Source: Patescibacteria group bacterium
GTDB taxonomy: Bacteria > Patescibacteriota > Minisyncoccia > Phycocordibacterales > Phycocordibacteraceae
Direction: 5' to 3'
Length of the DNA stretch: 64,000 bases
Assembly (NCBI GenBank): GCA_040384725.1
Contig: JAZKIS010000004.1
Span: 1,256-65,255, forward strand
Shown here piece after piece: positions 2,129 through 59,280 of the stretch. The notes under the pieces are model-generated. The model saw nothing but the letters and a program-made list of their open reading frames with translations. It was not told where the DNA came from and searched no databases. How positions within the stretch are numbered: the stretch's first letter is position 1; each line of letters starts with the position of its first letter. A program made the position numbers and the translations under genes.

Positions 2129-3304
2129 ATGCATAGGAAGCGCGTCTATCTCGATTGGGCAGCCGCAGCACCCGTATCTCCTCGGGTGAATCGTAGCTAT
2201 AGAAAGACCGCTAACGTGTTCGGGAACCCTTCGTCGCCTCACGCAGAGGGTCGACAAGCCAACGTGCTCCTCACGGATGCGCGCGTGCGCATCGCACGGC
2301 TTGCGGGCGTGAAGCAGGACGCCGTTATCTTCACCGGAGGCGCAACCGAAGCGAATGCTATCGCTATCGAGGGGCAGATTCGCGTGCTCAAAAAGAAAGG
2401 GGCGCGGCCGGAAGCACTGCACGTGCTCTATCTCCCGAGTGCGCATGCCTCAACGAGAGGCTGTATAGCCGGACTGGAAAAGGAGGGCGTCCAGGTGGAA
2501 CCTCTGATCGTCTTCGGAGGCATGATCGATCTCGCGGCCCTTAAAGGCCAGATTCGCCCTGAGACGGTGCTCGTAGCACTCGAAGCAGTATGCGGGGAGA
2601 CAGGCGCGCGCTTCGATACGCGCGGGGTACGCCAGGTGCTCGATCACGCGCGGAAGGAGGGCGGGACAAGGATCCGCATGCATGCGGACGCGAGTCAGCT
2701 GCCGCTCGTAGAATCGTTCGAGCTCACGCGTATCGCGTCCGACACCCTTACGCTCGATGCACAGAAAGTAGGCGGAGTGCGCGGGATAGGCGTCGTGCTC
2801 GCTCCAAGGCAGGTCTCGATCGAACCGTTGATGCAGGGAGGAGGGCAGGAGCGGGGGCTGCGCCCGGGCACGGAATCTAGCGGGCTCGCGAGCGCGTTCG
2901 CGTGCGCGCTCGAAGAGGCGCATGAGACCCATGCATCGTTCGCACTAAAGGCTCGGGTCCAGAGAGACCGTCTCGTAGAGCGTCTTACCGCTGCTATCGC
3001 CGCAGTAGAGGTAAACGGCGGAAAGAACACGGTGCCCCACATTCTCAATGTGTCGCTTCTCGGGAGGGACACCGACTATGTCGCGGCACTTCTTGATGAG
3101 GCAGGGTTTGCGATCTCGACCCGAAGCGCGTGCGCAACCGATGAGGAAGGCTCGGTTGCCGTGCGTGCATATAGCAATGATCCTGAGAGAGCGTCGTCGA
3201 CGCTGCGCGTATCCTGGGGTCCAACGACCACGGAGCGGGAGCTCGACCGCTTCACTGACGCCCTTGTCCGTGCAGTTCGATTCGTAGACACGAACACGGT
3301 ATAA
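2129..3304 (+). CDS. class V aminotransferase / cysteine desulfurase (NifS/IscS-like)
   Basis: 391 aa; N-terminal YLDWAAAAP...FGNPSSPHAEGRQA...IFTGGATEANA pattern typical of cysteine desulfurases. Confidence 0.75.
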   Translation: MHRKRVYLDWAAAAPVSPRVNRSYRKTANVFGNPSSPHAEGRQANVLLTDARVRIARLAGVKQDAVIFTGGATEANAIAIEGQIRVLKKKGARPEALHVLYLPSAHASTRGCIAGLEKEGVQVEPLIVFGGMIDLAALKGQIRPETVLVALEAVCGETGARFDTRGVRQVLDHARKEGGTRIRMHADASQLPLVESFELTRIASDTLTLDAQKVGGVRGIGVVLAPRQVSIEPLMQGGGQERGLRPGTESSGLASAFACALEEAHETHASFALKARVQRDRLVERLTAAIAAVEVNGGKNTVPHILNVSLLGRDTDYVAALLDEAGFAISTRSACATDEEGSVAVRAYSNDPERASSTLRVSWGPTTTERELDRFTDALVRAVRFVDTNTV

Positions 3305-3313
3305 TTTCCCTAT

Positions 3314-4066
3314 ATGAACATCGAGGACCTCACCAAGACGCAGCTTCTTCTTCTCACGATCCTGGTTAACTTCGTGACGGCCATCGCGACGGCCGTTATG
3401 ACGGTGTCCTTGCTCGATCAGGCGCCCCCGACGGTTACGCAGACCGTGAACCGTATCGTTGAGCGCACGGTTGAGACCGCGGCCCAGGCGCCGCTCCCGA
3501 CGATACCTGGCATCGCGGCGCCCGCGAAGGAAACGATCGTGATCCGTGACGAGGACCTCCTCTCTGCCGCTATCCGTGCGGACGCCGGACGCCGCGTCAT
3601 GATCCATAAGGGAGCGACTACCACCCCGGTCCTCGCTATCGGTACGTACCTTCCGGACAAGCGCGCCGTTGTGACCGCGTCGGGTGCCGCACTCCCGAAG
3701 GAAGCCACCATCGTGTTCGCGAACGGCGCGACCGCCGAGGCATCGCTCTCACGCGCAGGCGCTACCCTTACGATCTTCGGATTCTCCGATACCGCAGCGC
3801 TTCCTGCCGCTACGACGCCTGACCTGGTTGCCGCCGCAAGCCTCAACCAGGGCCAGACGCTCGTGTCGCTCACGCGCGAGCTCGCCGCGGTATCGGGCAT
3901 CATTTCTATCGTCGACGAGACGGGTATCCGCGCGAACGTAACCGGCGTGCCGCCCGGTGCCGCCGCGGTTAACATCTCAGGGGACATCATAGGCATCGCG
4001 ACCTCGGTTCCCGGCGTCTTCGCCCCTGCAGACCGTATCAACACGCTCCTCTCTGAGGCGCCGTAA
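3314..4066 (+). CDS. membrane-anchored hypothetical protein with a degenerate trypsin-like (DegP-like) C-terminal region
   Basis: N-terminal TM helix; C-terminal PPGAAAVNISGDIIGIATSV aligns with the DegP GNSGGALVNLNGELIGINTAI motif, but the catalytic Ser is replaced. Confidence 0.5.
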   Translation: MNIEDLTKTQLLLLTILVNFVTAIATAVMTVSLLDQAPPTVTQTVNRIVERTVETAAQAPLPTIPGIAAPAKETIVIRDEDLLSAAIRADAGRRVMIHKGATTTPVLAIGTYLPDKRAVVTASGAALPKEATIVFANGATAEASLSRAGATLTIFGFSDTAALPAATTPDLVAAASLNQGQTLVSLTRELAAVSGIISIVDETGIRANVTGVPPGAAAVNISGDIIGIATSVPGVFAPADRINTLLSEAP

Positions 4067-7761: not shown

Positions 7762-8586
7762 ATGGCCGATCCAAATCCGTTTGAAGTGCTTGGCCTCGCT
7801 CCTGACGCTTTGCGCGGAAGGAGCGAGGAAAAGATCCGCGCGCTCGTAAAGCTCTTCGGGCGCTCGTTGTCGCAGGTCGAGCATCCTGACGTCGAAGGCG
7901 GGGATATGGCACGCTTCAAAACCGTACAAGCGGCGTTGAGCGAGCTCGAAGACCCGGAGAGGTTCAAGAAGCACAAGGATGCGTACCTTGAGCCGCGAAA
8001 GACGAAGCTCGAAAAGCTCTCCTCTGACCTGCAGTCTGCAACAGCTGTCGCACGGAGGACCAAGAGGCAGCGCGAGGAATACCAGAAGGCGATAGCAGGA
8101 GCCCTATCTCGTCCTCACATACGAGACCTTAGCGGCTTCCAGCTTACGCTTCACGATACCCTCGAGTACGAACGCCAGTACGAACGCCACATGTCGAGAA
8201 CCCAGATGGCCGCACTCTTCTCGAAGCTGACCTTCAAGGCTGACGGTTCTGTCACCCATGAGCGTCAACGAAGAGAGGTGAACGTACTCAGGACTCCTCT
8301 CGGCTGCATTCCGAAGCAGTCGCTTACCGTGCGCGGGGGGATACTCGGCTTGCTGAACAGCTGCCAACCCTCCCTCGACACGGCACGGATCTCAGGTAAG
8401 AGCCGTTCCGGCCCCGTTCCGGGCACGCGCAAAATTCCTTGGGTCTATGCGGAGCCTATCCTGAAAAGACTGACGCCTCAGATAGTTCCTGATTCGTTTC
8501 TCTTCTCTGCGGTACGCGACGACGAAGACATCAAACTTTATTTTGAAGGGTTTCTCTTCAAAATCGATCCCATCAGTCCTTCGTGA
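7762..8586 (+). CDS. J-domain (DnaJ-like) protein
   Basis: N-terminal NPFEVLGLAPDA...LVKLFGRSLSQVEHPDVEGGD carries the J-domain signature and HPD motif. AGGAG Shine-Dalgarno 7 nt upstream. Confidence 0.6.
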   Translation: MADPNPFEVLGLAPDALRGRSEEKIRALVKLFGRSLSQVEHPDVEGGDMARFKTVQAALSELEDPERFKKHKDAYLEPRKTKLEKLSSDLQSATAVARRTKRQREEYQKAIAGALSRPHIRDLSGFQLTLHDTLEYERQYERHMSRTQMAALFSKLTFKADGSVTHERQRREVNVLRTPLGCIPKQSLTVRGGILGLLNSCQPSLDTARISGKSRSGPVPGTRKIPWVYAEPILKRLTPQIVPDSFLFSAVRDDEDIKLYFEGFLFKIDPISPS

Positions 8587-8789
8587 CTGGTGGGGTTTCT
8601 TTTATGCAGATAGTAGCGGGCCCACTGCAAATAGAATGGAACACCATTGAGCAAACTATCCTGCATTGGGAGCATGTATCTCCTGTCTATAACACCATCT
8701 TTAAGAAATGAAGGTCTCCCGATTTGCACAGACGTATGGTTCTCAGGTACTTAGGAGAAATAATTAGCCTCAGGAGTATACTGAGCACT

Positions 8790-9614
8790 ATGAGACAAGG
8801 ATTCCCTAGCATGCCGCTATCAAGTTCATCTGAACCTAAAAAAGGTGCAGAAGGCACAGCAAACCTTGAAGAGAACGAATCCTTGCTATTCTTCGAACGT
8901 CTTGCAAATCCTCGTATCAGGACGCAACTTCTAGACCTTCTTTATAAGGGGGAAGAAATGGCAGCAGGACAGGACTATACAGAGATCCTTGAAGAAGACG
9001 GTGAGAATGTGCAGTTCGTGGATAAGCTATATGTTCCTAAGTCCAGACAACAAGTAGCAGAGGAGCTAGAACAGCGCATCAGAGTGGTGGAAGGCTATAC
9101 GCCCATCGAGTTCTCCGACAAGATGCCTACTGCTGAAAGTATGACAGTCGGGGAATGGAAAATATACGGAAAGCTTCTGACCGTAAAGCAAAAGAGTATC
9201 GCAGAAGCGCATGAGAAGGGACATGTCATACGCCCGTTCGATGAACGATTCCCATTCTTCAACGAATACTTTCAGAGCGGGTTCGATCTGAGTGTATCGG
9301 TCTTTACAGACGAGGAGATTGAAGAGCTGAGAAAGCAGGGAGACAATGGTCCCGAAATACCCACCGAACACATCATAGAAGGCGGGATGCTGTATCTCTT
9401 TTCAGCTATGGAGATTGCCGAGCGCATGGCCCAGCTCAAGAACTATTTTGGCATGAAAGGAGACGAGCAATTAACCGCTGAGCAGTTGGCTCATGCTAGA
9501 GCACACTACGTAGAAGATACCGGCCTCGACAACAATATGACCTCGTTCTTCAAGGCTATTACACCTCAAACAGAAAAGAGATTTCTAGAACTGATTAATA
9601 CGTCGGGGATATAG
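8790..9614 (+). CDS. hypothetical protein
   Basis: 275 aa acidic protein; start chosen at MRQGFPS (TATACT 8 nt upstream). No recognised domain. Confidence 0.5.
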   Translation: MRQGFPSMPLSSSSEPKKGAEGTANLEENESLLFFERLANPRIRTQLLDLLYKGEEMAAGQDYTEILEEDGENVQFVDKLYVPKSRQQVAEELEQRIRVVEGYTPIEFSDKMPTAESMTVGEWKIYGKLLTVKQKSIAEAHEKGHVIRPFDERFPFFNEYFQSGFDLSVSVFTDEEIEELRKQGDNGPEIPTEHIIEGGMLYLFSAMEIAERMAQLKNYFGMKGDEQLTAEQLAHARAHYVEDTGLDNNMTSFFKAITPQTEKRFLELINTSGI

Positions 9615-9627
9615 AAATGAAGCAAAT

Positions 9628-9654
9628 TTGACATACAATACTATATTGTAGAAT
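9628..9654 (+). promoter_or_regulatory. sigma70-type promoter (TTGACA-15-TAGAAT, with TG extension)
   Basis: TTGACA at 9628, TAGAAT at 9649, in an AT-rich intergenic stretch upstream of ORF 9688. Confidence 0.5.
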
Positions 9655-9687
9655 AATACATTCAGAACTTTCAATGGAGATACTTCT

Positions 9688-9972
9688 ATGGCCCGTGGCC
9701 CGCAACAGCACAACCGTCGGAACGAGTGGTTGCATTTCTTCGCAGGATCGCCTCAGCGACTCGCGTGGACGGCAGTGGGGCTGTTCGTGGTCTTTGCCAT
9801 GTTCTTCCCGATCTCAGCTTCAATCGTCCTTAACAATGTCCTGACGGCATTCGTTAACTCCTTCGGACCGTCTGCCGGACCCCTGCTCGCGATCGCTATC
9901 TCGGTCTGGGCCATCTGGTACGTCATGATTCGGCCGTTCAGGGCGAAGAAGAAAAAGAAGTCCGATCACTGA
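9688..9972 (+). CDS. small integral membrane protein
   Basis: 94 aa with two hydrophobic helices and a KKKKK C-terminal tail. Confidence 0.5.
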   Translation: MARGPQQHNRRNEWLHFFAGSPQRLAWTAVGLFVVFAMFFPISASIVLNNVLTAFVNSFGPSAGPLLAIAISVWAIWYVMIRPFRAKKKKKSDH

Positions 9973-9990
9973 TTCTCGCTGCTCGTTCGC

Positions 9991-10022
9991 AAGCCCCGCA
10001 CACTGATGCGGGGCTTTTGAAT
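9991..10022 (+). terminator. rho-independent terminator
   Basis: aagccccgca cactga tgcggggctt followed by ttga. Confidence 0.6.
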
Positions 10023-11217: not shown

Positions 11218-11319
11218 TGGTTGCTCCTACGTTCCGTAGTGAAAAGAACTGGCGTTCCGCCAGCACTGGACGAATGTCCGGAATCAAAATACAACGTTAT
11301 CTAACAAACGTCAATGATG

Positions 11320-11390
11320 CGGGCCCACTAGGAATCGAACCTAGGACGTCGGTTTTGGAGACCGAAGTTATACCATTTAACTATGGACCC
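11320..11390 (-). tRNA. tRNA-Trp (anticodon CCA)
   Basis: Reverse complement gggtcca-ta-gtta-aatggta-taac-t-tcggt-cTCCAaa-accga-cgtc-ctagg-ttcgatt-cctag-tgggccc-g is a 71-nt cloverleaf. Confidence 0.85.
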
Positions 11391-25762: not shown

Positions 25763-26737
25763 ATGGAATCGTTCTGGACCGGGCTCTCGAAGCCCTTTTT
25801 TGTACTCGCGCCTATGGCGGACGTGACGGACGCTGCGTACCGGAAACTCATAGCAGCTAAAGGGAAGCCGCACGTAACCTGGACGGAGTTCGTCTCTGCC
25901 GACGGCTTGTACTACACCCGCGAGAAGAAGGACATCCCGGACCATGAGAACCCGCTCATGCGGGATCTCCAGTTCACGGACGCCGAGCGCCCTATCGTCG
26001 CGCAGCTCTTCTCCTCGAACCCGGAGACCATGCGCTACGCGGCCAAGCTCTGCAAAGAGCTCGGATTCGACGGCATCGATATAAACATGGGATGCCCTGA
26101 CAAATCCATCGAGAAGCAGGGGTGCGGCGCAGCCATGATAAAGAATCCCGAGAAGGCCAGAGAGATTATCGCTGCCGCGCGCGAAGCGGGACTTCCAGTC
26201 TCCGTGAAGACGCGTATCGGCTACAACACTGAGAATATCGACGAATGGATCGCGATGCTTCTCGGAGAGAATCTCCCTGCGCTCACGGTCCATCTTCGTA
26301 CGCGCAAAGAGATGTCGAACGTTCCGGCGCACTGGGATCTCATGCCTCGCATCGTTGCGCTTCGCGATAGCATTGCGCCTCAGACTCGCCTCATCGGAAA
26401 CGGCGACGTCGTGGACCTCAAGGACGCCGAGAAGAAGGTACGTACGAGCGGCTGCGACGCGGCGATGATCGGGCGCGGCATCTTCGGGAATCCGTGGGTG
26501 TTCGCGGGGCGCGCACTTGAGGATACGACACCCGCTGAGCGGCTCGAGGCTCTCATCGAGTTCGCGCGTGCGTTCGAAGCCATGAAGCCAGCCAAGTCCT
26601 TCCATTTGGTGCGTAAGCACGTAAAGGCGTTCGCCACGGGCTTCGAGGGAGCCGCTGAGCTCCGTGCGAAGCTTATGGACACCTCCTCCGCTTCCGCTAT
26701 GGAGGGCGTGCTCCGCGAGCATGCACTCCTGGTATAA
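25763..26737 (+). CDS. dus: tRNA-dihydrouridine synthase
   Basis: FVLAPMADVTDAAYRKL...DGIDINMGCP is the Dus signature. Start at MESFWTG; the upstream ATG at 25741 is followed by a stop three codons later. Confidence 0.85.
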   Translation: MESFWTGLSKPFFVLAPMADVTDAAYRKLIAAKGKPHVTWTEFVSADGLYYTREKKDIPDHENPLMRDLQFTDAERPIVAQLFSSNPETMRYAAKLCKELGFDGIDINMGCPDKSIEKQGCGAAMIKNPEKAREIIAAAREAGLPVSVKTRIGYNTENIDEWIAMLLGENLPALTVHLRTRKEMSNVPAHWDLMPRIVALRDSIAPQTRLIGNGDVVDLKDAEKKVRTSGCDAAMIGRGIFGNPWVFAGRALEDTTPAERLEALIEFARAFEAMKPAKSFHLVRKHVKAFATGFEGAAELRAKLMDTSSASAMEGVLREHALLV

Positions 26738-26745
26738 TCGGTCTC

Positions 26746-27777
26746 ATGGCACATCAGTCTCTGTATCGCGCATATCGCCCCTCTACCTTCAAGGACGTCA
26801 TCGGCCAAGACCAGGTGGTGACACCACTCGAGGATCAGATTAGAAGCGGGAAGGTAGGACACGCATATCTCTTCGCAGGCTCTCGAGGTCTCGGCAAGAC
26901 TTCTATCGCGCGCATATTCGCGCGGGCGCTCAAGACTGACGAACGGGATATCGTCGAGCTCGATGCGGCGTCGAACAACGGCGTCGACGAAGTACGGGCA
27001 CTGAACGAGAGCGTGCACACGCTCCCGTATAACTCAGAGCGGAAGGTCTACATCCTTGACGAGGCGCACATGCTCTCGAAGAGCGCCTGGAATGCTTTTC
27101 TGAAGACGCTTGAGGAGCCTCCTCCACATGTGGTTATTATCCTTGCGACCACCGAGCTCGAGAAGGTGCCGGAAACCGTCCGCTCCCGCTGCCAGGTATT
27201 CCAGTTCAAGAAGCCGACGCGCACAGGACTCGCGAAGCTCGTACTCGATGTTGCCAAGAAGGAAGGCTACGTGATCGAGCTTGCCGCAGCTGACCTTATC
27301 GGCATGCTCGGTGACGGCTCGTATCGCGACGCGCTCTCCGTGCTCGAGAAGGCGCTCGCATCAAGCTCGGACAAGAAGCTCACGCGCGAGGACGCGGAGA
27401 AAGCGACGGGAGCACCGCGTCATGCGCTCGTACACGGACTCGTGTCTGCGCTTTCAGAAGGGAATGAAGCGAATGCGCTTAGCCTGATCCGCACGGTCTC
27501 AGAGCAGGGCATCGATATGCCGCTCTATCTAGCCCTCGTGCTCGAGTACATACGGCAGGTTCTCCTCCTTCGCCACGCGCCAGAGCTCGTTAAAGAGATT
27601 CAGGAAGAGCTTGGCGAGGATACGTATGCCGAAGCCTCAGGTCTCGCGTCAGCAAAGGAGTCGCGGCTCTCACACGAGACGCTCCGTACGTTCCTTGATG
27701 CGGCAAGCCGTATGCGTTTCTCGCCGGTGCCGTCGCTTCCTCTTGAGCTCGCTGTCCTTGAGCTCGCGCGCGCATAA
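26746..27777 (+). CDS. dnaX: DNA polymerase III subunit gamma/tau (ATPase core only)
   Basis: HAYLFAGSRGLGKTSIARIFA Walker A and the SRCQ box; 343 aa. Confidence 0.88.
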   Translation: MAHQSLYRAYRPSTFKDVIGQDQVVTPLEDQIRSGKVGHAYLFAGSRGLGKTSIARIFARALKTDERDIVELDAASNNGVDEVRALNESVHTLPYNSERKVYILDEAHMLSKSAWNAFLKTLEEPPPHVVIILATTELEKVPETVRSRCQVFQFKKPTRTGLAKLVLDVAKKEGYVIELAAADLIGMLGDGSYRDALSVLEKALASSSDKKLTREDAEKATGAPRHALVHGLVSALSEGNEANALSLIRTVSEQGIDMPLYLALVLEYIRQVLLLRHAPELVKEIQEELGEDTYAEASGLASAKESRLSHETLRTFLDAASRMRFSPVPSLPLELAVLELARA

Positions 27778-28694
27778 TGCTGAAGAACCTAAAACCCGTC
27801 TTCGCCTATCTCCTGCCGGTCCTTGTGGTTGGGCTCGTTGCTCAGGCAGCACTTAAGACGGACGATCTTTCAACCCTCAATCCGTTCTATAAGCCGTGCG
27901 CAGAACCGCTCGCGTACGCCACAGAGAGGTATGACGAGCGCTTCGGCGTCTCTGAAGAAGAGTTCGCTGCAGCCGTAACGGAGGCAGCGGCGCTCTGGAA
28001 CGATGCGGCGGGAACCGAGGTTCTTGCGGTTAGTAGCGAGCCTTCTATAACGGTCGGCATGCTCTATGACGAGCGCCAACGTGCGGTTGAGCTCGGCGAG
28101 ACCATTGGCGGAGAGCAGAGCGCGTATGATTCCATGAAAAGGGAGGTTGAGAAGCTGAACGATAGGTTCGTCTCGCTCCGCACGTCGCATGAAGCGAAGA
28201 CTGCTTCCTTTGAACGGGACGTACGCAAATACGAAGAGGACGTTCAGATGTGGAATGCGCGGGGAGGTGCGCCGCCTGCAGTCTATGAGGAGCTCGAAGC
28301 GAAGAAGCGGGAGCTCGAGCGACGGAAGAAGACGCTCGATGCGGAGGTGGCAACGCTTAATAGCCTTATCGTTTCCATCCAGGAACGTGTCACCGAGCTA
28401 AACCTGCTTGCAAAGCAGACGAACGAGAAGGTGAATACGTATAACAAGACCCTCGGTCACGATTTCGATCAGGGAAACTACGTGGAAGATGAGGCAGGAA
28501 GACGTATAACTATCTTCACGTTCCAGGATCGTTCAGAGCTGAAGCGCGTACTTGCGCATGAGTTCGGGCATGCGCTCGGTATCGGGCACCTAACCGATGC
28601 GGGCGCCATTATGTATTCCTACAACATCGGGAATGAGCTGATCCTCACCCTAGGCGACGTAGCGGCGTTAAAAGAAGTCTGCAAGCTTAAGTAG
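27777..28694 (+). CDS. secreted zinc metalloprotease (metzincin/matrixin-like) with coiled-coil insertion
   Basis: Signal/TM N-terminus; HEFGHALGIGH zinc-binding motif and a downstream Met-turn-like IMYSY; ~150-aa charged coiled-coil insert. Start overlaps the dnaX stop (TAATG). Confidence 0.65.
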   Translation: MLKNLKPVFAYLLPVLVVGLVAQAALKTDDLSTLNPFYKPCAEPLAYATERYDERFGVSEEEFAAAVTEAAALWNDAAGTEVLAVSSEPSITVGMLYDERQRAVELGETIGGEQSAYDSMKREVEKLNDRFVSLRTSHEAKTASFERDVRKYEEDVQMWNARGGAPPAVYEELEAKKRELERRKKTLDAEVATLNSLIVSIQERVTELNLLAKQTNEKVNTYNKTLGHDFDQGNYVEDEAGRRITIFTFQDRSELKRVLAHEFGHALGIGHLTDAGAIMYSYNIGNELILTLGDVAALKEVCKLK

Positions 28695-28740
28695 CTTGCA
28701 GCGGAGGTGTTTTGCAGGCAGGATTAACCGTGTGCGCATT

Positions 28741-28811
28741 GGGAGATCGTCTAATGGTAGGACAGCGGCCTTTGAAGCCGTGAATCTAGGTTCGATCCCT
28801 AGTCTCCCAGC
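28741..28811 (+). tRNA. tRNA-Gln (anticodon UUG)
   Basis: tgggaga-tc-gtct-aatggtag-ggac-a-gcggc-cTTTGaa-gccgt-gaat-ctagg-ttcgatc-cctag-tctccca-g, with U1-A72 and G73 as in bacterial tRNA-Gln. Confidence 0.85.
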
Positions 28812-28823
28812 TATACTGAATAT

Positions 28824-29195
28824 ATGAAGCCAACAAGCGAAAAAACTCTCAAGCGCGTATACGCTATGGTCTTTGCAAAAGTCTATCCGATGTATATCGC
28901 TAAGGCAGAAAAGAAGGGTCGCACCAAAGAAGAGGTTGATGAAGTCATCCGATGGTTAACCGGATACACGCAAAGCAAGCTGAAAGCACAGATTGAGAAG
29001 GAAGTGAACTTTGAGGTTTTCTTCAAGACGGCTCCGAAGCTCAACCCTTCACGTAAACTTATTACTGGCATGATCTGCGGCGTGCGGGTGGAGGATATTG
29101 AGGATCCGATCATGCGTGAGATGCGCTATCTGGACAAGCTTGTCGATGAGCTAGCGAAAGGAAGACCAATGGAGAAGATTAAACGACACGTATAA
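28824..29195 (+). CDS. DUF2200-like protein
   Basis: 123 aa; [29 protein letters not shown] resembles the DUF2200 family; TATACT 6 nt upstream. Confidence 0.55.
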
Positions 29196-29215
29196 TTCCC
29201 CGGTATACTAGATAT

Positions 29216-29428
29216 ATGAAAATATTTGATTTTTTTCGTACTAAAGAAGAAGAGAAACGGGATACCTCGGGAGACTCGACTGGGGGTTTAGTGACGACAA
29301 GCGCAACAATCGATTCAGAAGACCAACAAGGCGTAGACCAGTCAGCTGGTACGGGTTGGTTTGATTCGTTTATGGGAGGGGACGGTAGTGGCGATGGCGG
29401 AGGAGGAGATGGAGGTGGAGCAGGATAA
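29216..29428 (+). CDS. small hypothetical protein with Gly/Asp-rich C-terminus
   Basis: 70 aa; TATACT upstream; low-complexity GGDGSGDGGGGDGGGAG tail. Confidence 0.4.
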   Translation: MKIFDFFRTKEEEKRDTSGDSTGGLVTTSATIDSEDQQGVDQSAGTGWFDSFMGGDGSGDGGGGDGGGAG

Positions 29429-29496
29429 GTTCGTTACTTCGAGCACGGGCGTCCCAGACTGCCGGCAATTAATCTGCATATGGTATTCTCAAAACC

Positions 29497-30168
29497 ATGA
29501 ATCCAGACGAGTTGAGTCACCAGTACGATTCGATTGCTGATAGCTTTGAAAAAGCTATCGAGGAAGGCAATAAGGCGAGTAAGGATGCAATGCGGGCGCG
29601 CCTGCCAGATATGCATGGCAAGAGTGCGTTGGATATTGGCTGTGGAGAAGGAACTGATGCGGCTTTCTACTTAGAGAGCGGCGCTTCGCGCGTTGCCGGC
29701 CTCGACGCCTCAAAGGAGCTACTTGAGAAGGCGAAGCAGAAGCATCCAGGGATAGATTTTCAGTATGGGCTATTCGAGAAGATCCCATTTGGAGACGGGG
29801 AATTCGATTTCGTATTTTCCAAGTATGCTCTCATGACTTCAGCAGAGCTTGAACCTGCGTTCGTTGAAGTCCAGCGAGTGCTGAAGCCAGGCGGAGTATT
29901 CATGTTCGTCGTTACGCACCCCATTCGTCAGTTTTATGAGAAGAGAAAGGAAGGCAAGGATTACTTCAAGAAAGAGATCGTCGATTCAGTATGCTTCGAC
30001 GGGCTCATAACTTTTAGAGAGCCAACACATACACTCAAGGAGTATCTATCTGAGTACATGCTCTCAAACTTCACTCTTGAAGCCTATGAAGAATGTTTCG
30101 ATCCCGCAGCGGAGAAGATTGTCGATACCTACCCGGGATTCGTTCTGCTTAAGTGGCAGAAGCGATAA
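29497..30168 (+). CDS. class I SAM-dependent methyltransferase
   Basis: ALDIGCGEGTDAAFY motif I and the downstream acidic motif. Confidence 0.8.
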   Translation: MNPDELSHQYDSIADSFEKAIEEGNKASKDAMRARLPDMHGKSALDIGCGEGTDAAFYLESGASRVAGLDASKELLEKAKQKHPGIDFQYGLFEKIPFGDGEFDFVFSKYALMTSAELEPAFVEVQRVLKPGGVFMFVVTHPIRQFYEKRKEGKDYFKKEIVDSVCFDGLITFREPTHTLKEYLSEYMLSNFTLEAYEECFDPAAEKIVDTYPGFVLLKWQKR

Positions 30169-30169
30169 A

Positions 30170-30192
30170 TAGAAAGGTTCCAACATCGTCCC
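30170..30192 (+). repeat. 22-nt intergenic repeat copy 1 (TAGAAAGGTTCCAACATCGTCCC)
   Basis: One of three near-identical copies at gene junctions in this islet. Confidence 0.7.
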
Positions 30193-30213
30193 TGACTTCC
30201 GTCATCAAATATT

Positions 30214-30239
30214 AAGCCCCGCGATTGCTCGCGGGGCTT
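30214..30239. terminator. bidirectional terminator between convergent methyltransferase and GNAT genes
   Basis: aagccccgcga ttgc tcgcggggctt forms an 11-bp stem. Confidence 0.65.
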
Positions 30240-30243
30240 GCAG

Positions 30244-30699
30244 TCAGAACCGATAGCGGTAGACATTCGTTTCTCTCAATACAAAGCCGAGCTCCTTATA
30301 CAGTGCGTTGGCCTTGATCCTGTCAGGACTGCTCGTAAGGTTGCAGGCAGAGAGTCCGCGCTCCTGGGCAAGTTCGAGGATCTTGCGCATGAGATCCAAG
30401 CCAAAGCCTTGGCCTCGATACATCTCATCGACTACGACACTCTCGATAAAGCCGATGGTCTTGTTCAGTAGCGGAGCAAGGACCATTGTGGCAGTCCCGA
30501 CCAGCTTCCCGTCCTCGAATGCACCGAGAACGATAACGTTCGGGGATTGAAGAGAAATCTGTACTCGCTCGCTCTTCAAGGGCGCAGTTCCTGGCGAAAG
30601 TTGCGCGAAGAGTCGAGCAAGATCAGGCATTAGGTCAGCAGCCTGAGATGCCGTTATCTGCTTAATACGTTTTGGCATTACCAGCTCCCATGAGGACAT
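30244..30699 (-). CDS. GNAT family N-acetyltransferase
   Basis: RGQGFGLDLMRKILELAQERGLSAC is the acetyl-CoA binding motif A. Confidence 0.8.
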   Translation of the reverse strand: MSSWELVMPKRIKQITASQAADLMPDLARLFAQLSPGTAPLKSERVQISLQSPNVIVLGAFEDGKLVGTATMVLAPLLNKTIGFIESVVVDEMYRGQGFGLDLMRKILELAQERGLSACNLTSSPDRIKANALYKELGFVLRETNVYRYRF

Positions 30700-30739
30700 C
30701 TAGGGGTACGGCATCAGGGGCAACTTGTGGTGTCTAATA

Positions 30740-30762
30740 TAAGAAAGTTCCAACACCGTCCC
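30740..30762 (+). repeat. 22-nt intergenic repeat copy 2 (TAAGAAAGTTCCAACACCGTCCC)
   Basis: Lies in the divergent region between the GNAT and PNPOx-like genes. Confidence 0.7.
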
Positions 30763-30794
30763 AGACCGCCAATTCAGTTTGCTACACTTCGTAT

Positions 30795-31274
30795 ATGGAT
30801 AACGTGCAAGTCGCCAAGAATATAATTCGAGAAACTATATACGCGGTACTCGGCACTGCTTCCTCTGACGGAATGCCATGGATCTCGCCGGTATTTTTCG
30901 CATACGATGACTCATTCAACATATATTGGGTTTCGAACAAAGACTCCCTCCACTCTCAGCTGCTAAGAGAAAATCCAGAAGTAGCAATAACAATCTTTGA
31001 TTCAAGGGCTGTAGAAGGTGAGGGTGATGCTGTTTATATGCGCGCACGCGTAGAAGAGCTTGCAGAAAAAGAAGATATTGAAAACGGAGTTCGTGTCTTC
31101 AATGCTAGGGCCACCGGTGAAGACTTTAAGATAAAGGAAATCTCTGAAGTTATCGGTGAAGGCGTTTGGCGTATTTATAAAGCTACCTCTTATGAGACAA
31201 CGAAGCTCGGGAAGGGGCAGTTTATACATGGCCAGTATGTGGATATGCGTATACCTATCTCACTTGCGGGATAG
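30795..31274 (+). CDS. pyridoxamine 5'-phosphate oxidase-like FMN-binding protein
   Basis: TIYAVLGTASSDGMPWISPVFFAYDDSFNIYWVS is the split-barrel PNPOx-like pattern. Confidence 0.75.
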   Translation: MDNVQVAKNIIRETIYAVLGTASSDGMPWISPVFFAYDDSFNIYWVSNKDSLHSQLLRENPEVAITIFDSRAVEGEGDAVYMRARVEELAEKEDIENGVRVFNARATGEDFKIKEISEVIGEGVWRIYKATSYETTKLGKGQFIHGQYVDMRIPISLAG

Positions 31275-31293
31275 AAAGCTTCCAACATCGTTC
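31272..31293 (+). repeat. 22-nt intergenic repeat copy 3 (TAGAAAGCTTCCAACATCGTTC)
   Basis: Begins with the TAG stop codon of the PNPOx-like gene. Confidence 0.7.
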
Positions 31294-31315
31294 AGGATGC
31301 CAACAAAAATAGAAC

Positions 31316-31678
31316 CTATTGAAGGCTTACCAACGTAAGAACGGCCACTGTTATTGCACCAAATATCGCGAGCGTTTTTAAGAAGTAAGATACTGCTTCG
31401 ACTCGGCTACCCTCAAGAAGTTTAAGTACCGGTTGATAGAAAAATAGAAACGCCATGACCGCTCCAGAAAAGACAAACAGTGAAATAACACCTATCCCGT
31501 CAAGCAAGGTGTCCGGCGTATCGTGACGGAGCGATTCAATAAAATGCATAAACAGCACTACCAGGCCAATGTAGAGAATGGCAGCGAATGCGTTTAGAAA
31601 GGGATGCCACTTCATATGCTTGGTATAACACCGCATATGCATCTTTGGTTGCTTGTCCTCACAAGGACCAGGAGGCAA
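31316..31678 (-). CDS. small integral membrane protein
   Basis: 120 aa with three predicted TM helices. Confidence 0.55.
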   Translation of the reverse strand: MPPGPCEDKQPKMHMRCYTKHMKWHPFLNAFAAILYIGLVVLFMHFIESLRHDTPDTLLDGIGVISLFVFSGAVMAFLFFYQPVLKLLEGSRVEAVSYFLKTLAIFGAITVAVLTLVSLQ

Positions 31679-31697
31679 TAGGGTATAGTTTAAATAT

Positions 31698-32036
31698 ATG
31701 AAATTCTTTGTTACCTACCAAATGGCCCATACAGGCCTCGACGAGTGGATGAAATTGCCAGAAGACGAGCGCAAAGCTCATGAAGTGCAGATGCAGTCCG
31801 ACTGGAATGCGTGGATGGAAGCCCATAAGGCATCTATTACGGAAAGCGCAGGCGTCGGGAAGCCCAAGCGCATCACGGTCTCAGGAGTCGAAGACTCTCG
31901 TAACGACATAATGATGTATTCGTTCGTCGAGGCGGAGTCGCTCGAGGCTGCGGCAGAACTCTTCAAGGACCACCCGCATTTCGGCATCCCTGGCGGATGG
32001 ATCGAGGTTATGTCCGTAAACAAGGCTATTAGTTAG
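31698..32036 (+). CDS. hypothetical protein
   Basis: 112 aa; TATAGT upstream; no confident family assignment. Confidence 0.5.
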   Translation: MKFFVTYQMAHTGLDEWMKLPEDERKAHEVQMQSDWNAWMEAHKASITESAGVGKPKRITVSGVEDSRNDIMMYSFVEAESLEAAAELFKDHPHFGIPGGWIEVMSVNKAIS

Positions 32037-32169
32037 CCAAGAGCGTCGCTTGTTATCGCAAGCCGCCAGCATTATGTGCTGGCGGCTTGCTTGTTGCTCT
32101 GGAAAGACCCTATATTTGTCATTCATATTTTCTATGATATAATCATCCCACTACTCCTAGACATCTCTC

Positions 32170-40278: not shown

Positions 40279-40293
40279 GGCTATACTCATCAC

Positions 40294-40605
40294 ATGGCAT
40301 CAGCATTCACAGAAGCGATATATGTGCTCGCTCGGAAGATCCCGAAAGGGAAGGTTGCGACCTACGGGCAGCTCGCCTTGCTCGCCGGAAGTCCCGGCGC
40401 CGCTCGCGCGGTGGGAAGCGCGATGCGATGTAACCCTGACATTCCAAAGACGCCCTGCCACAGGGTCGTTGCTTCCGACGGTTCCTTAACCGGCTACAGC
40501 GCCGGGCAAGGTATCAGCACGAAACGGAAGATGCTCATAGACGAAGGTGTCTCCTTCAGGGGAACGAAAGTGGATTTGAAAGCGTCGCTGTGGAAGGGAG
40601 TCTAG
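40294..40605 (+). CDS. MGMT-family protein (methylated-DNA-protein-cysteine methyltransferase DNA-binding/active-site domain)
   Basis: PCHRVV active-site motif; 103 aa single domain. Confidence 0.65.
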   Translation: MASAFTEAIYVLARKIPKGKVATYGQLALLAGSPGAARAVGSAMRCNPDIPKTPCHRVVASDGSLTGYSAGQGISTKRKMLIDEGVSFRGTKVDLKASLWKGV

Positions 40606-49582: not shown

Positions 49583-52120
49583 ATGGCAAAAAAACCACTC
49601 GAAGGACCGCCGTATACCGAAGACTCCGATGAGCAGGAAGTAGAGCGTGGCGGGCAGTATGCCGCGATACTGGCTCGCGCCGATCGCCATCTTGAGGATC
49701 CTGCAGACAGTACACCGATGGAACGCACCGAACTTGAAGACGGTGCCTCGGTGCGGGTGGCACCAGGAGCTAAGAAGCCCTCGGAGAAAGATCGTCGAAA
49801 GAAACGTACGCACGGTGCAAAAGCAGCTGCTCCGAAAGAAGAGCCGCGCTATGGCGTACCTGCCGTAACAGATGGGATAACGGAAACGAGGAAGGAACGG
49901 CATGATGCGCTGCGAGAGGCGCTCGCGAAAAGCCAAGAGCAGGATGATGCCGCGCCACAGACCGTAATCCCAATGCCAGATCAGAGCGCAGAGGAGCATC
50001 TGCGTGACGTGAGGAGCCGCCTTGATGCGAGGAAATCCCCTGGAGAGGAGATTCGCGTGCAGATTGAGGCGGTCGAGAAGCTCAAGTATGAGAAGCTTCA
50101 GGAATTTCATAAGAACCGGTCCGCACTTGGCCGTATGGCAGAGCAGTACACCGGTGAGATGCTGCCAAAGGAGATAAAGATGCTCATGACGACCTCGGAA
50201 GAATTGCGCGGCGCTTACCTCAAGGCAACCATCGGCTCGGTTGAGGAGCGCAGGGCTGCGCGCGGGCGAGACGAGAACAAGAATGAGGCCGTACGAGAGC
50301 GGTATCAGCGCCGCTACGAGTTCGAACGCCGCATGATCATCGAACCAGAGGAAAAGGCGATCCAGGCGCGCATGGAAGGTCTCGGCTCTCGAGAAAAGAA
50401 GGCGCTCGATACCCTCTATGAAAAATATAAAGAATTGCCGGCACCGGCTCGCATCGTGGCCATGTCCGGGCTCATGCTCGCAGGAGGCGCTGCGATCGGC
50501 GCGGGCCTCGGTACGGGTATCGGGCTAACGGCGCTCGCCATCGGCGGCATGTCTGCTGCAGCGCGTATTACCTCCTTGTACCAGAAGAATAAGATCGTAA
50601 AGTCAGGGCTCCAGCATGCGGCCGTTGTCACGGGCCTCGGAGGCCTTCTCGGATTAGCGTTTGAGCACGCGGTGCGAATGGGGCACAAGATGAGCGGCAC
50701 CGAACGGAAAGCCCAGGAGACGCTTGCGCGAGGCGTTAAGACCGATGGCGACAAGACACTCAACCTCGGCAATCTTAATATCTTTAGCAAGCTCCTTGCG
50801 GACCGGAAGAAAGCTAAGGCGGCAAAGGAAAGGATCGACCTTCAGGCACGATGGGCCCGATCCGTGGGATCGGTCGGCGTGGGTCTTGCGGCCGGGTTCG
50901 GTATGTCCGAAGTGTTCAACGGAAATGACGTAGAACAGACTTCAGGAAACGGAGATGTCGCGCCAGAGAATATAGGCGCTGGACCTAACACCGCTGAAAG
51001 CGCTGCGCCTGCGCATGATGCACCCCCATCTGCTGCTCCAGCAGCACCCGCTGAAGCTCCGAACGAGGCGCCTATAGAAGTAAAAGCTGAGCCGATCGTT
51101 GCCACTATCGACGCGGGCGAGGGCTTCAACAAGCTCTTCCTTGATCTTCGCGATTCAGTGGATACGAAGCTTCACGGCATGCAGGACGTATCTTCCTCGT
51201 CGCCGGTTATGGAGTACCTATCCAAGACTTCGCCAACCGAGCTTTCAGAACGAATCGGTGCATTCGATCCTGAAACAGGCGAGAGCATGATTATGCAGCC
51301 CGGAGACAAACTCTTCTTGGACGATAAGGGAGATCTCTGGTTCCAGAAGGAAGGAGGCGAAGCGAAGCTCCTCATGGAGAATGATGCCGCAGCACCCGGC
51401 GGGTTCAAGGTGCACGATCTCGCGGACATTAAGGTTCCTGAAGCTTCAATACCAGTCTCTACTCAGAGCCCAGAAGCAAGAGTAGAATCAAGTCCAGCAG
51501 TTGCAGCTACTGAAGCTCCTCTGGAATCTGTAGCAACTACAGAAACCCCATATGTCTCTGAAGGCAGTGCATCGGTAGAGCATGCTCCCGGTCCGATCGC
51601 TAGTGAACCAGTTATAGATCGTGTTCCCGAATCTAGCTCTCAAGATGCTGAAGGCTTAATTCCAAGAGCGAGCCTCGGCAGCATGCCTGTGAACGTGGAT
51701 GCTCAGGCTCCAGTAGGCACCCTTAAGACCCAAAGCTTGGAATCCTGGACAGAGGATGCCATCGAAGCCGAAACTCACTCATTCTCGAATATCTATGATG
51801 TTGAGATAAATCCTTCAGAGCCGGCGGGATACGAATGGAAGGTTCCGGGCTCGAATCTAACCTACACAGTTGCGTTTGGAGAAAATGCTGCTGCAACCGA
51901 GCGGTGGGCGCTTCGCGAGCTTGAGCTGCGTCCTGAAGCAAGCGTGTTGATAAATTACACCGATACCAACCCAACGACAGGCGCCATTGAAACGAATGTT
52001 GGAGCCTGGGTGACAGGTGAAGACGGGAAGCCAGAATTCGTGCGAGAGCTAGTGAATCCGCAGAATGGTCTTAGGCTCGGTGCGGCAAATCCACAAGACT
52101 TTATCCGCAAGCTTCCTTAA
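49583..52120 (+). CDS. large membrane protein with coiled-coil N-terminus and Ala/Pro/Glu-rich low-complexity region
   Basis: 845 aa with a Gly/Ala-rich TM hairpin (IVAMSGLMLAGGAAIGAGLGTGIGLTALAIGGMSAAARI), a further TM helix, and an APAHDAPPSAAPAAPAEAPNEAP tract. Confidence 0.55.
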   Translation: MAKKPLEGPPYTEDSDEQEVERGGQYAAILARADRHLEDPADSTPMERTELEDGASVRVAPGAKKPSEKDRRKKRTHGAKAAAPKEEPRYGVPAVTDGITETRKERHDALREALAKSQEQDDAAPQTVIPMPDQSAEEHLRDVRSRLDARKSPGEEIRVQIEAVEKLKYEKLQEFHKNRSALGRMAEQYTGEMLPKEIKMLMTTSEELRGAYLKATIGSVEERRAARGRDENKNEAVRERYQRRYEFERRMIIEPEEKAIQARMEGLGSREKKALDTLYEKYKELPAPARIVAMSGLMLAGGAAIGAGLGTGIGLTALAIGGMSAAARITSLYQKNKIVKSGLQHAAVVTGLGGLLGLAFEHAVRMGHKMSGTERKAQETLARGVKTDGDKTLNLGNLNIFSKLLADRKKAKAAKERIDLQARWARSVGSVGVGLAAGFGMSEVFNGNDVEQTSGNGDVAPENIGAGPNTAESAAPAHDAPPSAAPAAPAEAPNEAPIEVKAEPIVATIDAGEGFNKLFLDLRDSVDTKLHGMQDVSSSSPVMEYLSKTSPTELSERIGAFDPETGESMIMQPGDKLFLDDKGDLWFQKEGGEAKLLMENDAAAPGGFKVHDLADIKVPEASIPVSTQSPEARVESSPAVAATEAPLESVATTETPYVSEGSASVEHAPGPIASEPVIDRVPESSSQDAEGLIPRASLGSMPVNVDAQAPVGTLKTQSLESWTEDAIEAETHSFSNIYDVEINPSEPAGYEWKVPGSNLTYTVAFGENAAATERWALRELELRPEASVLINYTDTNPTTGAIETNVGAWVTGEDGKPEFVRELVNPQNGLRLGAANPQDFIRKLP

Positions 52121-52131
52121 GAGTACCCTGT

Positions 52132-52434
52132 ATGAATGATACAAATTTTAGTCGAGTGCTGAATGCGCTTCAAATCGGCGAACTTTCTCCCCAAGAGCAG
52201 GAGGCTCTACTGCTCGACCTAAATTCTCTAATCTTTCGCGGAACGATGGTACGTCTGATTGAGCGCATGGATGAGAAAACGAAAGACGATTTCATCCAGC
52301 TTGTTGAGAGTGCCGCGGACGAGAGTGCCTTAGAGGCTTTCCTCAAAGAGCGTATACCAGATACGGATGCTTCGGTTGCTGAAACAGTGCAGGAAATCAG
52401 TGATGATATACTTGCGGTTACCGGCACTAAATAA
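52132..52434 (+). CDS. small acidic hypothetical protein
   Basis: 100 aa ORF immediately after the large protein. Confidence 0.45.
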   Translation: MNDTNFSRVLNALQIGELSPQEQEALLLDLNSLIFRGTMVRLIERMDEKTKDDFIQLVESAADESALEAFLKERIPDTDASVAETVQEISDDILAVTGTK

Positions 52435-52443
52435 AGAATAGCT

Positions 52444-52962
52444 ATGAATGTCACTGGAACTGGAATCGCTGTAGCGCTCGCTGTCGTAGTGGCGCTTGGC
52501 TTCCTTGCTCTTGGAACTCCGATGCTCACCTCCCTTGGAGGACCTGCTATGGACCAGTCTATGGCCGTCGGAACTACTACAAATCAAACTGCTTCAACAA
52601 CATCTATGGATCTCTCTCTGGCTCCTGGCGAGCCGCTTCCAACCGAACTCATGATTAACGACATTGTTGTCGGCACGGGCGCGGAAGCGACCCCTGGCTC
52701 AACCGTTACGGTTAACTACACCGGTGCGCTTCCGGACGGAACCGTCTTCGACAGTTCCGTCGGACGCGGCCCCTTCACTTTCGGTCTCGGCGCCGGACAG
52801 GTTATCCGCGGATGGGATGAAGGAGTGGCTGGTATGAAGGTTGGTGGCAAGCGCCGTCTCGTTATCCCGGCTGATAAGGCGTATGGGAATCAGGCAGTAG
52901 GCGGCATCATTCCGGCGAATGCAACGCTTCTGTTTGAGGTAGAACTCTTGGGTGTTCAATAA
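52444..52962 (+). CDS. FKBP-type peptidyl-prolyl cis-trans isomerase, membrane-anchored/secreted
   Basis: [21 protein letters not shown]...[20 protein letters not shown] is the FKBP domain; N-terminal TM helix. Confidence 0.85.
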
Positions 52963-58876: not shown

Positions 58877-58902
58877 ATGAAGACGGGTGATATACTTTCC
58901 GC

Positions 58903-59280
58903 ATGTCTGACACCAAATTCATCCTCGTCGTCGAGGACGACCCAATCCTTAAGAACCTGCTCGGCCACACCTTAGCCGGGAAATATCAGACGCTGTATGC
59001 GTCAGATGGGAACGAGGCGCTCGCGCTTCTCGAGGCGAATAAGCCGGTGCTCGTGCTTCTCGATCTCATGCTCCCGACCATGGACGGGTTTGCGGTGCTG
59101 CAGTCCATTCGCGCCCGCACTGACGAGCTCAAGACGGTGCCGATTATCGTCGTCTCGAACCTGGGCGCCCAGGCGGATATCGAGAAGGCGAAGACGCTCG
59201 GCGCCAACGACTACCTCATCAAGGCCGAGGTAGCGGTAGAGGAGATCGTCGCGAAGATCGAAGGGATGCTCGCCGCGTAG
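58903..59280 (+). CDS. single-domain response regulator (REC only)
   Basis: 125 aa; ILVVEDD...[10 protein letters not shown]...SNLG...K receiver motifs. Confidence 0.85.

Follow-up and report, generated by a model that had tools for sequence, protein, structure and literature searches.

The window analysed here is the whole 64,000-nucleotide stretch of contig JAZKIS010000004.1 from a Patescibacteria group bacterium, and our subject is an AT-rich islet of small, functionally unrelated genes that begins immediately downstream of a tRNA-Gln gene. Our analysis indicated that this islet is probably an array of small gene cassettes, four or five in number, that is anchored at the tRNA-Gln gene and was built by site-specific recombination. 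The evidence comprises the array architecture found in other genomes, the hypervariable content of the syntenic locus, one precise cassette indel, one pinned crossover of a recombinase-bearing element, and the linkage between that recombinase and the site at which the cassettes end. The initial annotation, made from the sequence alone, had likened the organisation to that of a cassette array or of an integrative islet that had decayed at a tRNA gene; this proposal is supported by a family of sites that occurs in arrays, by the variability of the syntenic locus and by the degenerate copies in the window.

The tRNA-Gln(UUG) gene was located at positions 28740-28811 on the forward strand (ARAGORN; Rfam tRNA, 63.8 bits), and its 3' end, GGTTCGATCCCTAGTCTCCCAGC (28789-28811, +), represents the attB-like anchor of the array. 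As had been noticed, the sequence becomes AT-richer directly after this gene: in 1-kb windows, the GC content fell from 0.57-0.60 upstream (~0.58) to 0.46-0.50 at 28.5-32.0 kb and then returned to 0.55-0.59. The GC content at third codon positions (GC3) was also lower in the islet genes (0.34-0.65) than in the long open reading frames (ORFs) around them (mostly 0.65-0.80). The 22-nt repeat reported at three gene junctions was recovered at 30171-30192, 30741-30762 and 31273-31294, all on the forward strand (three matches against 0.00 expected in 100 shuffles), with no copy elsewhere in the window. It proved to be a decayed copy of a ~35-nt site with the consensus cAGAAAGGTTCCAACATCGTCCCAGACTGCCAGCAA, and a fourth, divergent copy was recognised by repeat search, alignment and profile search. 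Site S3 (AGAAAGGTTCCAACATCGTCCCTGACTTCCGTCAT; 30171-30205, +) scored 33.7 bits, site S4 (30741-30776, +) 27.8 bits, site S5 (AGAAAGCTTCCAACATCGTTCAGGATGCCAACA; 31273-31305, +), called as the most decayed copy, 17.0 bits, and the divergent site S2 (AAGTTC, an 18-nt insert and GTCCCAGACTGCCGGCAA; 29427-29468, +) 16.3 bits (nhmmer, E 0.0017), compared with a median of 36 bits elsewhere. The CAGC core, which is present in 75% of the sites elsewhere, was found in none of the window's sites, which have CGGCA, CGTCA, CAATTCA and CAACA instead.

These sites divide the islet into four cassettes. Cassette 1 (28812-29468, +) contains a DUF2200 gene (28824-29195, +; Pfam E 1.6e-53) and a Gly-rich 70-aa ORF without a Pfam match (29216-29428, +), the stop codon of which is overlapped by site S2; it may represent two cassettes with a decayed internal junction at approximately 29193-29205 (TAATTCCCCGG). 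Cassette 2 (29469-30205, +) carries a class-I S-adenosylmethionine methyltransferase gene (29497-30168, +; Pfam Methyltransf_11/25), which lies directly downstream of site S2, and ends in site S3. Cassette 3 (30206-30776) carries a GNAT acetyltransferase gene on the reverse strand (30244-30699, -; Pfam Acetyltransf_1) and ends in site S4, and cassette 4 (30777-31305, +) carries a PNPOx-like flavoprotein gene (30795-31274, +; Pfam PNPOx_N), the stop codon of which overlaps site S5, where the cassette ends. The methyltransferase gene has its own -10 element (TGgTATTCT) and a leaderless ATG, as does the PNPOx-like gene (TGcTACACT), and a terminator scan placed a hairpin for the GNAT gene at 30214-30239. 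Many core genes across the window also begin 5-8 nt past a TAnAnT box without a Shine-Dalgarno sequence (for example at 26731-26748, 3300-3316, 40280-40296 and 58889-58905); among the 59 long ORFs of the window, approximately 10 look leaderless and approximately 10 have a Shine-Dalgarno-like sequence. Since leaderless starts are common at these core genes, the cassettes use expression signals of the host type. A 24-nt repeat at 28805-28828 and 29197-29220 (83% identity) is largely the generic TATACT-N-ATG leaderless start context, which is seen at core genes too, and the TATACT..ATATATG repeats (28805, 29197 and 31691) were rejected as recombination sites because they are mostly this generic promoter and start context.

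To place the site family in other genomes, we relied on two scans and a profile search. In a pattern scan of one genome per species (596 Gb) with 17 specified bases, the matches listed were mostly due to chance, and the true site family was picked out by extended flanking similarity only; a metagenome scan with a 21-mer gave at least 120 loci. For the family members among the matches listed, the hosts were Patescibacteria metagenome-assembled genomes (MAGs) or generically labelled MAGs, with Parcubacteria C7867-007 and -008, UBA6241, Kaiserbacteria and Paceibacterota among those named; the exception was one weak copy (locus L103) in a MAG labelled Gammaproteobacteria. The family occurred, again among the matches listed, in groundwater, sediment and other metagenomes. 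Our array statistics rest on at least 138 site-bearing Patescibacteria loci, in which the profile search detected at least 344 sites. The 5' part of the site, GGTTCCAACATCGTCCCA, is nearly invariant across genera, and the remainder, including the 3' part GACTGCCAGCAA, is more variable. All 76 loci with several sites had them in a single orientation, and the median spacing between sites was 566 bp. Exactly one ORF (median, 143 aa) lay in 137 of the 202 inter-site intervals and two ORFs in 20 of them. Most cassette ORFs run along the array (118), and 74 of the 192 (39%) lie on the opposite strand. Forward cassette genes bring a TGnTAyACT -10 element of their own, start at a leaderless ATG only a few bases beyond a site and have a stop codon adjoining the next one; for genes on the opposite strand, a hairpin behind a site marks the end. 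The cargo of the small cassettes (NUDIX, methyltransferase, SDR, HAD, histidine-phosphatase and GNAT proteins and many of no known kind) matches that of the window, and class-I methyltransferases of the same type as the window's are among the commonest.

If the repeat instead served the host generally in gene expression, for instance as a promoter, operator, terminator or RNA-processing site, the islet genes would be ordinary chromosomal genes. This explanation draws on the start of forward genes 20-30 nt past the site and on a ~30-nt module, CT(A/G)GACAGAACnTAsCATATGTTGCAG, that is joined to the left of 36 of 308 sites in other genomes (L053 6412-6478, L010 4254-4331 and L100 2252-2322, for example) and is readable as an outward promoter for the opposite-strand neighbour. 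The module holds the palindrome TGTCTAGACA, and in most cases a Shine-Dalgarno sequence and the start codon (ATG) of a gene on the opposite strand come next; from its sequence, CTAGACAGAAC..TGTTGCAG, it can be read as a putative promoter TTGGAA-18-TGgTAsGTT the -35 element of which falls within the invariant core of the site. In the module region, AGAAAGG is bracketed by ATGTTG and CAACAT, which form a short dyad. No intact copy of the module was present in the window (compare 30700-30741). However, the orientation of the site follows the tRNA and the array and never the gene, mixed orientation being absent from all 76 loci while the genes run both ways. Moreover, the spacing between a site and the -10 element after it ranges between 4 and 14 nt, no site copy occurs elsewhere in the 64 kb even though leaderless promoters are common there, and indels end at the sites (L224/L250 and L225/L228, described below). 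The site also lacks a hairpin and an Rfam family; only tRNA exceeded the Rfam threshold. We therefore regard a general expression signal as highly improbable. The repeat is distributed as same-orientation arrays next to tRNA genes rather than scattered genome-wide at unrelated positions. A miniature inverted-repeat transposable element or a repetitive extragenic palindromic element was ruled out by the lack of inverted ends and of dispersal, since the site is confined to arrays, keeps one orientation per locus, has no inverted arms and is absent from the rest of the 64 kb. Reading the site as coding sequence (IERFQHRP on the forward strand, MLEPFY on the reverse strand) gave no ORF that was consistent across copies.

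Short cassettes in a row that encode small, unrelated enzymes (a GNAT, a methyltransferase and others), with stop codons abutting the sites and no integrase adjacent, are also what would be expected of a cluster of attC sites lacking an integrase (CALIN), the remnant of a classical integron made by the tyrosine recombinase IntI. An attC site spans 57-141 nt, consists of imperfect inverted repeats (R''-L''...L'-R') and, as a single strand, folds into a hairpin. The site described here is ~35 nt long, conserved in sequence, not palindromic and devoid of inverted arms, and folding as DNA gave 0 to -3.9 kcal/mol (z -1.0 to +1.3) for the consensus and for either strand of the three window sites, in agreement with the earlier statement that no attC-like site was seen. 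In addition, the cassettes have their own promoters, 39% of the genes are on the opposite strand, and the anchor is the end of a tRNA gene rather than attI. When 219 ORFs of 260-620 aa from the 138 site-bearing loci were assigned to Pfam families in two batches, Phage_integrase was outside the top 25 families of either batch, a listing in which one or two members could be missed, and no integrase family was among the 25 most frequent Pfam families of 150 cassette ORFs. A crude test for the H-x-L-R-H motif was likewise negative for the ORFs of the window. An integron remnant is thus extremely improbable, and we return to a tRNA-anchored array built at sites of a different kind.

The sites are closely linked to tRNA-Gln. 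Arrays begin 160-1500 bp 3' of a tRNA gene on the same strand, and the tRNA-site pairs within 1.5 kb involved tRNA-Gln(UUG) 13 times, tRNA-Gln(CUG) 9 times and tRNA-Pro 5 times; tRNA-Gln(UUG), as in the window, also heads the arrays of L053, L065, L112, L155 and others. The 3' half of the site aligns to the 3' end of tRNA-Gln (GTCCC-AGACTGCCAGC versus ATCCCTAGTCTCCCAGC), the first site of L163 bears the acceptor sequence of its local tRNA, and the site tails of 17 loci resemble the tRNA-Gln of their own locus more closely than the tRNA-Gln of the other loci (permutation p ~0.02). Because of this alignment, the acceptor sequence in L163 and the covariation of the tails with the local tRNA, the site is a mimic that has diverged from the tRNA-Gln 3' end, with the 7-nt sequence CAACATC in place of the T-loop part. 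The earlier statement that no direct repeat of the tRNA 3' end was present was consequently misleading, as the 22-nt repeat itself is that mimic. Two loci contain a second array of the same genomes after tRNA-Pro(UGG) (L010 4870-4905 and L090 2705-2741), and both of these arrays start with a genuine tRNA-Gln 3' fragment, GGTTCGATCCCTAGTCTCCCAGCAA, 7-10 nt past tRNA-Pro, indicating that the landing site can be copied to other tRNA loci. Single sites were also observed after tRNA-Ala, -Val, -Leu and -Arg in other loci.

Comparison of the syntenic locus showed that its cassette content is hypervariable. The order Dus-HolB-tRNA-Gln is conserved upstream of the arrays in L065 (UBA6241), L053 (C7867-008) and L112, with 61-74% protein identity to the window, and HolB was upstream of the array in all eight loci that contained it. 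No cassettes were common to the window and these relatives, save for one weak methyltransferase match (30%) in another array (L010). L010 and L090 have completely different arrays between flanks of 80% nucleotide identity, L259 is nearly empty (HolB, tRNA-Gln and one site, followed by an HI0933-like gene), and L306 has a serine-recombinase element at HolB-tRNA-Gln in the same synteny as the window. Gene order downstream of tRNA-Gln thus differs between relatives, the reverse of the shared order and composition that the initial annotation had named as counting against it. The right edge of the islet was also defined by this comparison. The initial annotation had counted seven small genes and extended the islet to 32160; all seven are real and four were confirmed by Pfam, and the last two, a 120-aa membrane ORF (31316-31678, -) and a 112-aa ORF (31698-32036, +), neither with a Pfam match, belong to a conserved right flank (31316-32036) that is not demonstrably made of cassettes. 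The membrane ORF is 70% identical to L102 6485-6784, DNA matches to L102 cover both ORFs, and homologues of the membrane ORF lie directly downstream of the last site in L260, L269 and L102. Because these flank ORFs are shared with L102 and other loci, the array proper ends at 31305 and not at 32160.

Differences between closely related loci pointed to movement at the sites. L225 contains, directly after a site, an 876-nt segment that is missing in L228, where the flanks are 92-95% identical; the extra segment consists of one opposite-strand 275-aa ORF and one site copy. The same cassette was found from site to site in two arrays (L010 2900-3527 and L115 7108-7740) at 88% identity. L224 is empty and L250 holds a 7.6-kb recombinase element, and their flanks downstream of tRNA-Gln(CUG) are 100% identical. 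With slashes marking the junctions, attB is ..CCCGGCAGCA/AATAAAATCG, attL of L250 is ..CCCGGCAGCA/GTATACTATA, and attR is ..AAAAAAGGTTCGGATTTTAACCAAAAGAGACAGCA/AATAAAATCG (shorter form, ..GGTTCGGATTTTAACCAAAAGAGACAGCA/AATAAAATCG). These junctions place the crossover in CAGCA at the tRNA-Gln terminus and show that the tRNA was left intact. In the L250 element, the arm follows the GGTTC...CAGCA layout that the cassette site also has. An indel between L187 and L238 was rejected as a cassette event, since its ends are off-site and it looks unrelated.

Such a pattern might also be left by larger tRNA-targeting islands or prophages, similar to tycheposons, if each had been deleted to one cargo gene and an att scar and single cassettes had never been mobile. 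In favour of this, the same tRNA end is a target of recombinase-Rep elements of 7-9 kb, the integration of which leaves an att repeat resembling the tRNA, and the window sites are decayed. Random deletion, however, would not be expected to give the regular 566-bp median spacing with usually one intact ORF and its promoter, and neither the precise one-gene indel between L225 and L228 nor the presence of one cassette in two arrays (L010 and L115) agrees with it. The near-invariance of the 5' half of the site across genera argues for continuing selection on the site. Island debris is therefore a rather unlikely source of the islet, and the mobility of single cassettes is the reading that we pursue below.

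The only recombinase that recurred, according to ORF clustering and Pfam searches of the 219 ORFs of 260-620 aa, was a large serine recombinase with Resolvase, Recombinase and Zn_ribbon_recom domains. It is always antiparallel to the array, and it abuts tRNA-Gln or a tRNA-Gln 3' fragment in L188, L250, L306, L308 and L305. In L188, the recombinase gene follows tRNA-Gln and a tRNA-Gln 3' fragment within an element that also has rolling-circle Rep and helix-turn-helix genes; this element ends 6.9 kb on in a canonical 41-bit site, beyond which the array continues. In L308, the recombinase gene abuts tRNA-Gln(CUG) and a 29-bit site lies at the far end of the element. The recombinase of L305, which is 69% identical to that of L188 and is accompanied by Rep, abuts a tRNA-Gln 3' fragment that is followed by at least 13 sites. 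The elements at tRNA-Gln span 300-9500 in L306, 1-11500 in L308 and 4800-13100 in L250; their Rep is of the REP_ORF2-G2P / pSAM2 RepSA type, and their defence cargo includes CfrBI-type and BsaWI-type restriction-modification systems, a C5 methylase, ThsB-TIR, Mrr-NTPase, DpnI and a zeta toxin. The recombinase family is large, with more than 2600 members at E <= 1e-40. In a relative on a viral contig (L275), the stop codon is closely followed by an intermediate site, GGTTCGAACATCGTCTAAGTCTCCCAGCA; the viral relatives (<=35% identity) are mostly not beside tRNA-Gln, and only L275 has a site-like sequence. Adjacency and a shared site architecture suggest that the large serine recombinase is most likely the enzyme that moves the cassettes.

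Alternatively, the sites could be real recombination sites of another, unlinked recombinase, for example a host tyrosine recombinase of the Xer type, with the serine elements merely sharing the tRNA-Gln target. Most arrays indeed have no recombinase nearby, the missing second half-site is atypical of serine integrases, and the att arm of L250 differs from the canonical site. Against this, a canonical site forms the end of the L188 element, an array of at least 13 sites directly adjoins the L305 element, the intermediate site of L275 lies just past the recombinase stop codon, and no other recombinase recurred in the lists of the 25 most frequent Pfam families of the 219 ORFs. We consider an unlinked enzyme unlikely and retain the serine recombinase as the candidate.

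In its mechanism, the system would find its closest analogue in the staphylococcal cassette chromosome (SCC/SCCmec), which is moved by CcrAB or CcrC. There, the 3' end of rlmH is the target of the Ccr serine recombinases, and att-flanked cassettes without a recombinase are moved in trans, one cassette that bears the recombinase sufficing for the others (10.1101/2023.03.17.533233). Shared features would be a large serine recombinase, the 3' end of a conserved gene as the target and a tandem array with short direct att repeats. L224/L250 shows integration at the 3' end of an intact gene, all 344 sites are direct repeats within their loci, and defence genes are frequent cargo of the recombinase-bearing elements. 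Movement in trans would fit the precise L225/L228 indel and the cassette that L010 and L115 share. A recombinase with this set of domains is encoded in at least one unit in L188, L250, L305, L306 and L308, and in none within this window; relatedness to Ccr was compared at the level of Pfam domains only. The anchor here, however, is the tRNA-Gln terminus rather than rlmH, the hosts are Patescibacteria, and the units have a median spacing of 566 bp with usually one gene, whereas SCC cassettes measure several kb to tens of kb. Arrays here reach at least 13 units, and the site, ~35 nt long, mimics the 3' end of a tRNA.

In scale, the nearest functional match is the integron, which likewise has a fixed chromosomal platform of many single-gene cassettes, a site abutting the stop codon, content that is hypervariable between relatives, and a cargo of small enzymes and proteins of no assigned function. 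The differences are that the candidate enzyme here is a serine and not a tyrosine recombinase, that the sites are unstructured, that there is no Pc promoter, and that the cassettes bring their own promoters, carry genes on either strand and are anchored at a tRNA. Tycheposons of Prochlorococcus integrate at tRNA genes, push older elements outward and leave partial tRNA repeats, and a minority of them use large serine recombinases (10.1101/2020.12.28.424599). The tRNA anchoring and the probable outward pushing of older insertions resemble our arrays, but the tycheposon repeats are true partial tRNAs and the units are integrase-bearing, several kb long and mostly dependent on tyrosine recombinases, whereas recombinase-less single genes in regular arrays are bounded here by a conserved, diverged mimic (with the 7-nt T-loop-region replacement). 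The units do not each carry an integrase, 137 of the 202 intervals being single-ORF, and a distal direct repeat of the tRNA 3' segment is found in a modified form, with true fragments in L010, L090, L188 and L305.

Together with the indels, these comparisons suggest how the array may work. Each cassette has one gene (occasionally two) with its own expression signals and ends in a ~35-nt site. New DNA would enter at the 3' terminus of the tRNA by a crossover in CAGCA, leaving the tRNA intact and pushing older cassettes outward; insertion always at the tRNA-proximal end is something that we infer. Recombination between two sites would remove a cassette precisely. The putative driver would be the 7-9 kb element with the serine recombinase, a rolling-circle Rep and often defence genes, which occupies the tRNA-proximal slot in some genomes, and its recombinase would act in trans on the recombinase-less cassettes. 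Patescibacteria (also known as CPR) have tiny genomes, and their acquisition of accessory genes is poorly understood. More tentatively, we raise the possibility that Parcubacteria and related Patescibacteria possess a dedicated gene-capture platform that parallels the integron but uses a serine recombinase and has its landing site at the tRNA-Gln 3' end, in which a recombinase on a Rep-bearing driver shuffles single-gene cassettes tagged with a tRNA mimic in trans, a minority of them with a portable outward promoter module for opposite-strand genes, and that it may rank among the chief routes by which these ultra-small genomes gain genes. We found no published account of such a system in Patescibacteria, the literature coverage being incomplete, such that an earlier description is possible. 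If true, a widespread, regular tRNA-Gln cassette array would provide a concrete mechanism for gene flux in Patescibacteria and a second, independently evolved integron-like design based on a serine recombinase. Its apparent reliance on mainly one half-site (the tRNA end and its mimic) would make the enzyme interesting to recombinase biology and perhaps as a basis for genome-engineering tools. For this window, the islet would be a decayed member with an ordinary small-enzyme cargo, and the repeat would explain its gene junctions.

Several observations weigh against the cassette-array interpretation. No recombinase was found within the 64-kb window by tblastn, consistent with the earlier failure to see an integrase by eye, and the recombinase was present in only 5 of the 138 site-bearing loci, with L175, L176 and L194 lacking a clear tRNA junction. 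The L225/L228 crossover can be placed only somewhere within the shared site, and a crossover was pinned for one recombinase element only (L250), the arm sequence of which is unlike the canonical site. The ends of high-scoring segment pairs fell at sites in 27% of cases versus 8% at random, and no free circular cassettes were found among the fetched loci by terminal contig overlap. The sequence to the right of the sites is barely conserved, which is unusual for large serine recombinases, for which two half-sites are normal. The loci were collected by exact site match, so that site quality and array regularity elsewhere are overestimated, and ORFs were called by a naive longest-ORF rule. Homologues of the window's PNPOx-like protein in five other contigs were not flanked by sites. 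Because the window sites are mutated, none has the CAGC core and no recombinase lies within 64 kb, the array in the window is probably frozen, a fossil with intact genes.

Several features around the islet and in the wider collection deserve mention. A matrixin-like gene (Peptidase_M10; 27777-28694) lies between HolB and tRNA-Gln in the window and is not at that position in L065, L053 or L112. Two more stretches of low GC content (0.46-0.50), at 8500-10000 and 51500-52500, hold low-GC3 ORFs; they contain no site copy and have no directly adjacent tRNA, the tRNA-Trp gene at 11319-11390 being approximately 1 kb from the former. In L313 and L314 (GC 0.42), PNPOx homologues occur in array-like runs of small genes (NUDIX, DUF2200, HIT, VF530 and others) without the canonical site, and these runs may use a different site variant. 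The invariant 18-mer GGTTCCAACATCGTCCCA had 34 matches in viral contigs (L121-L154), all in one high-GC gene family, and these were treated as a coincidence. The viral match encodes WDDVGT on the other strand, and the similarity, at ~25 nt with the flanks, is oddly long; the gene family has a GYPCQ motif and is presumably a C5 cytosine methyltransferase. Finally, in the Logan assembly of SRR26324625 (L001 and L002), an independent assembly of the same organism, the sequence falls into two contigs exactly at tRNA-Gln; this may be an ordinary break at a tRNA repeat, or a sign that the population varies where the array begins.

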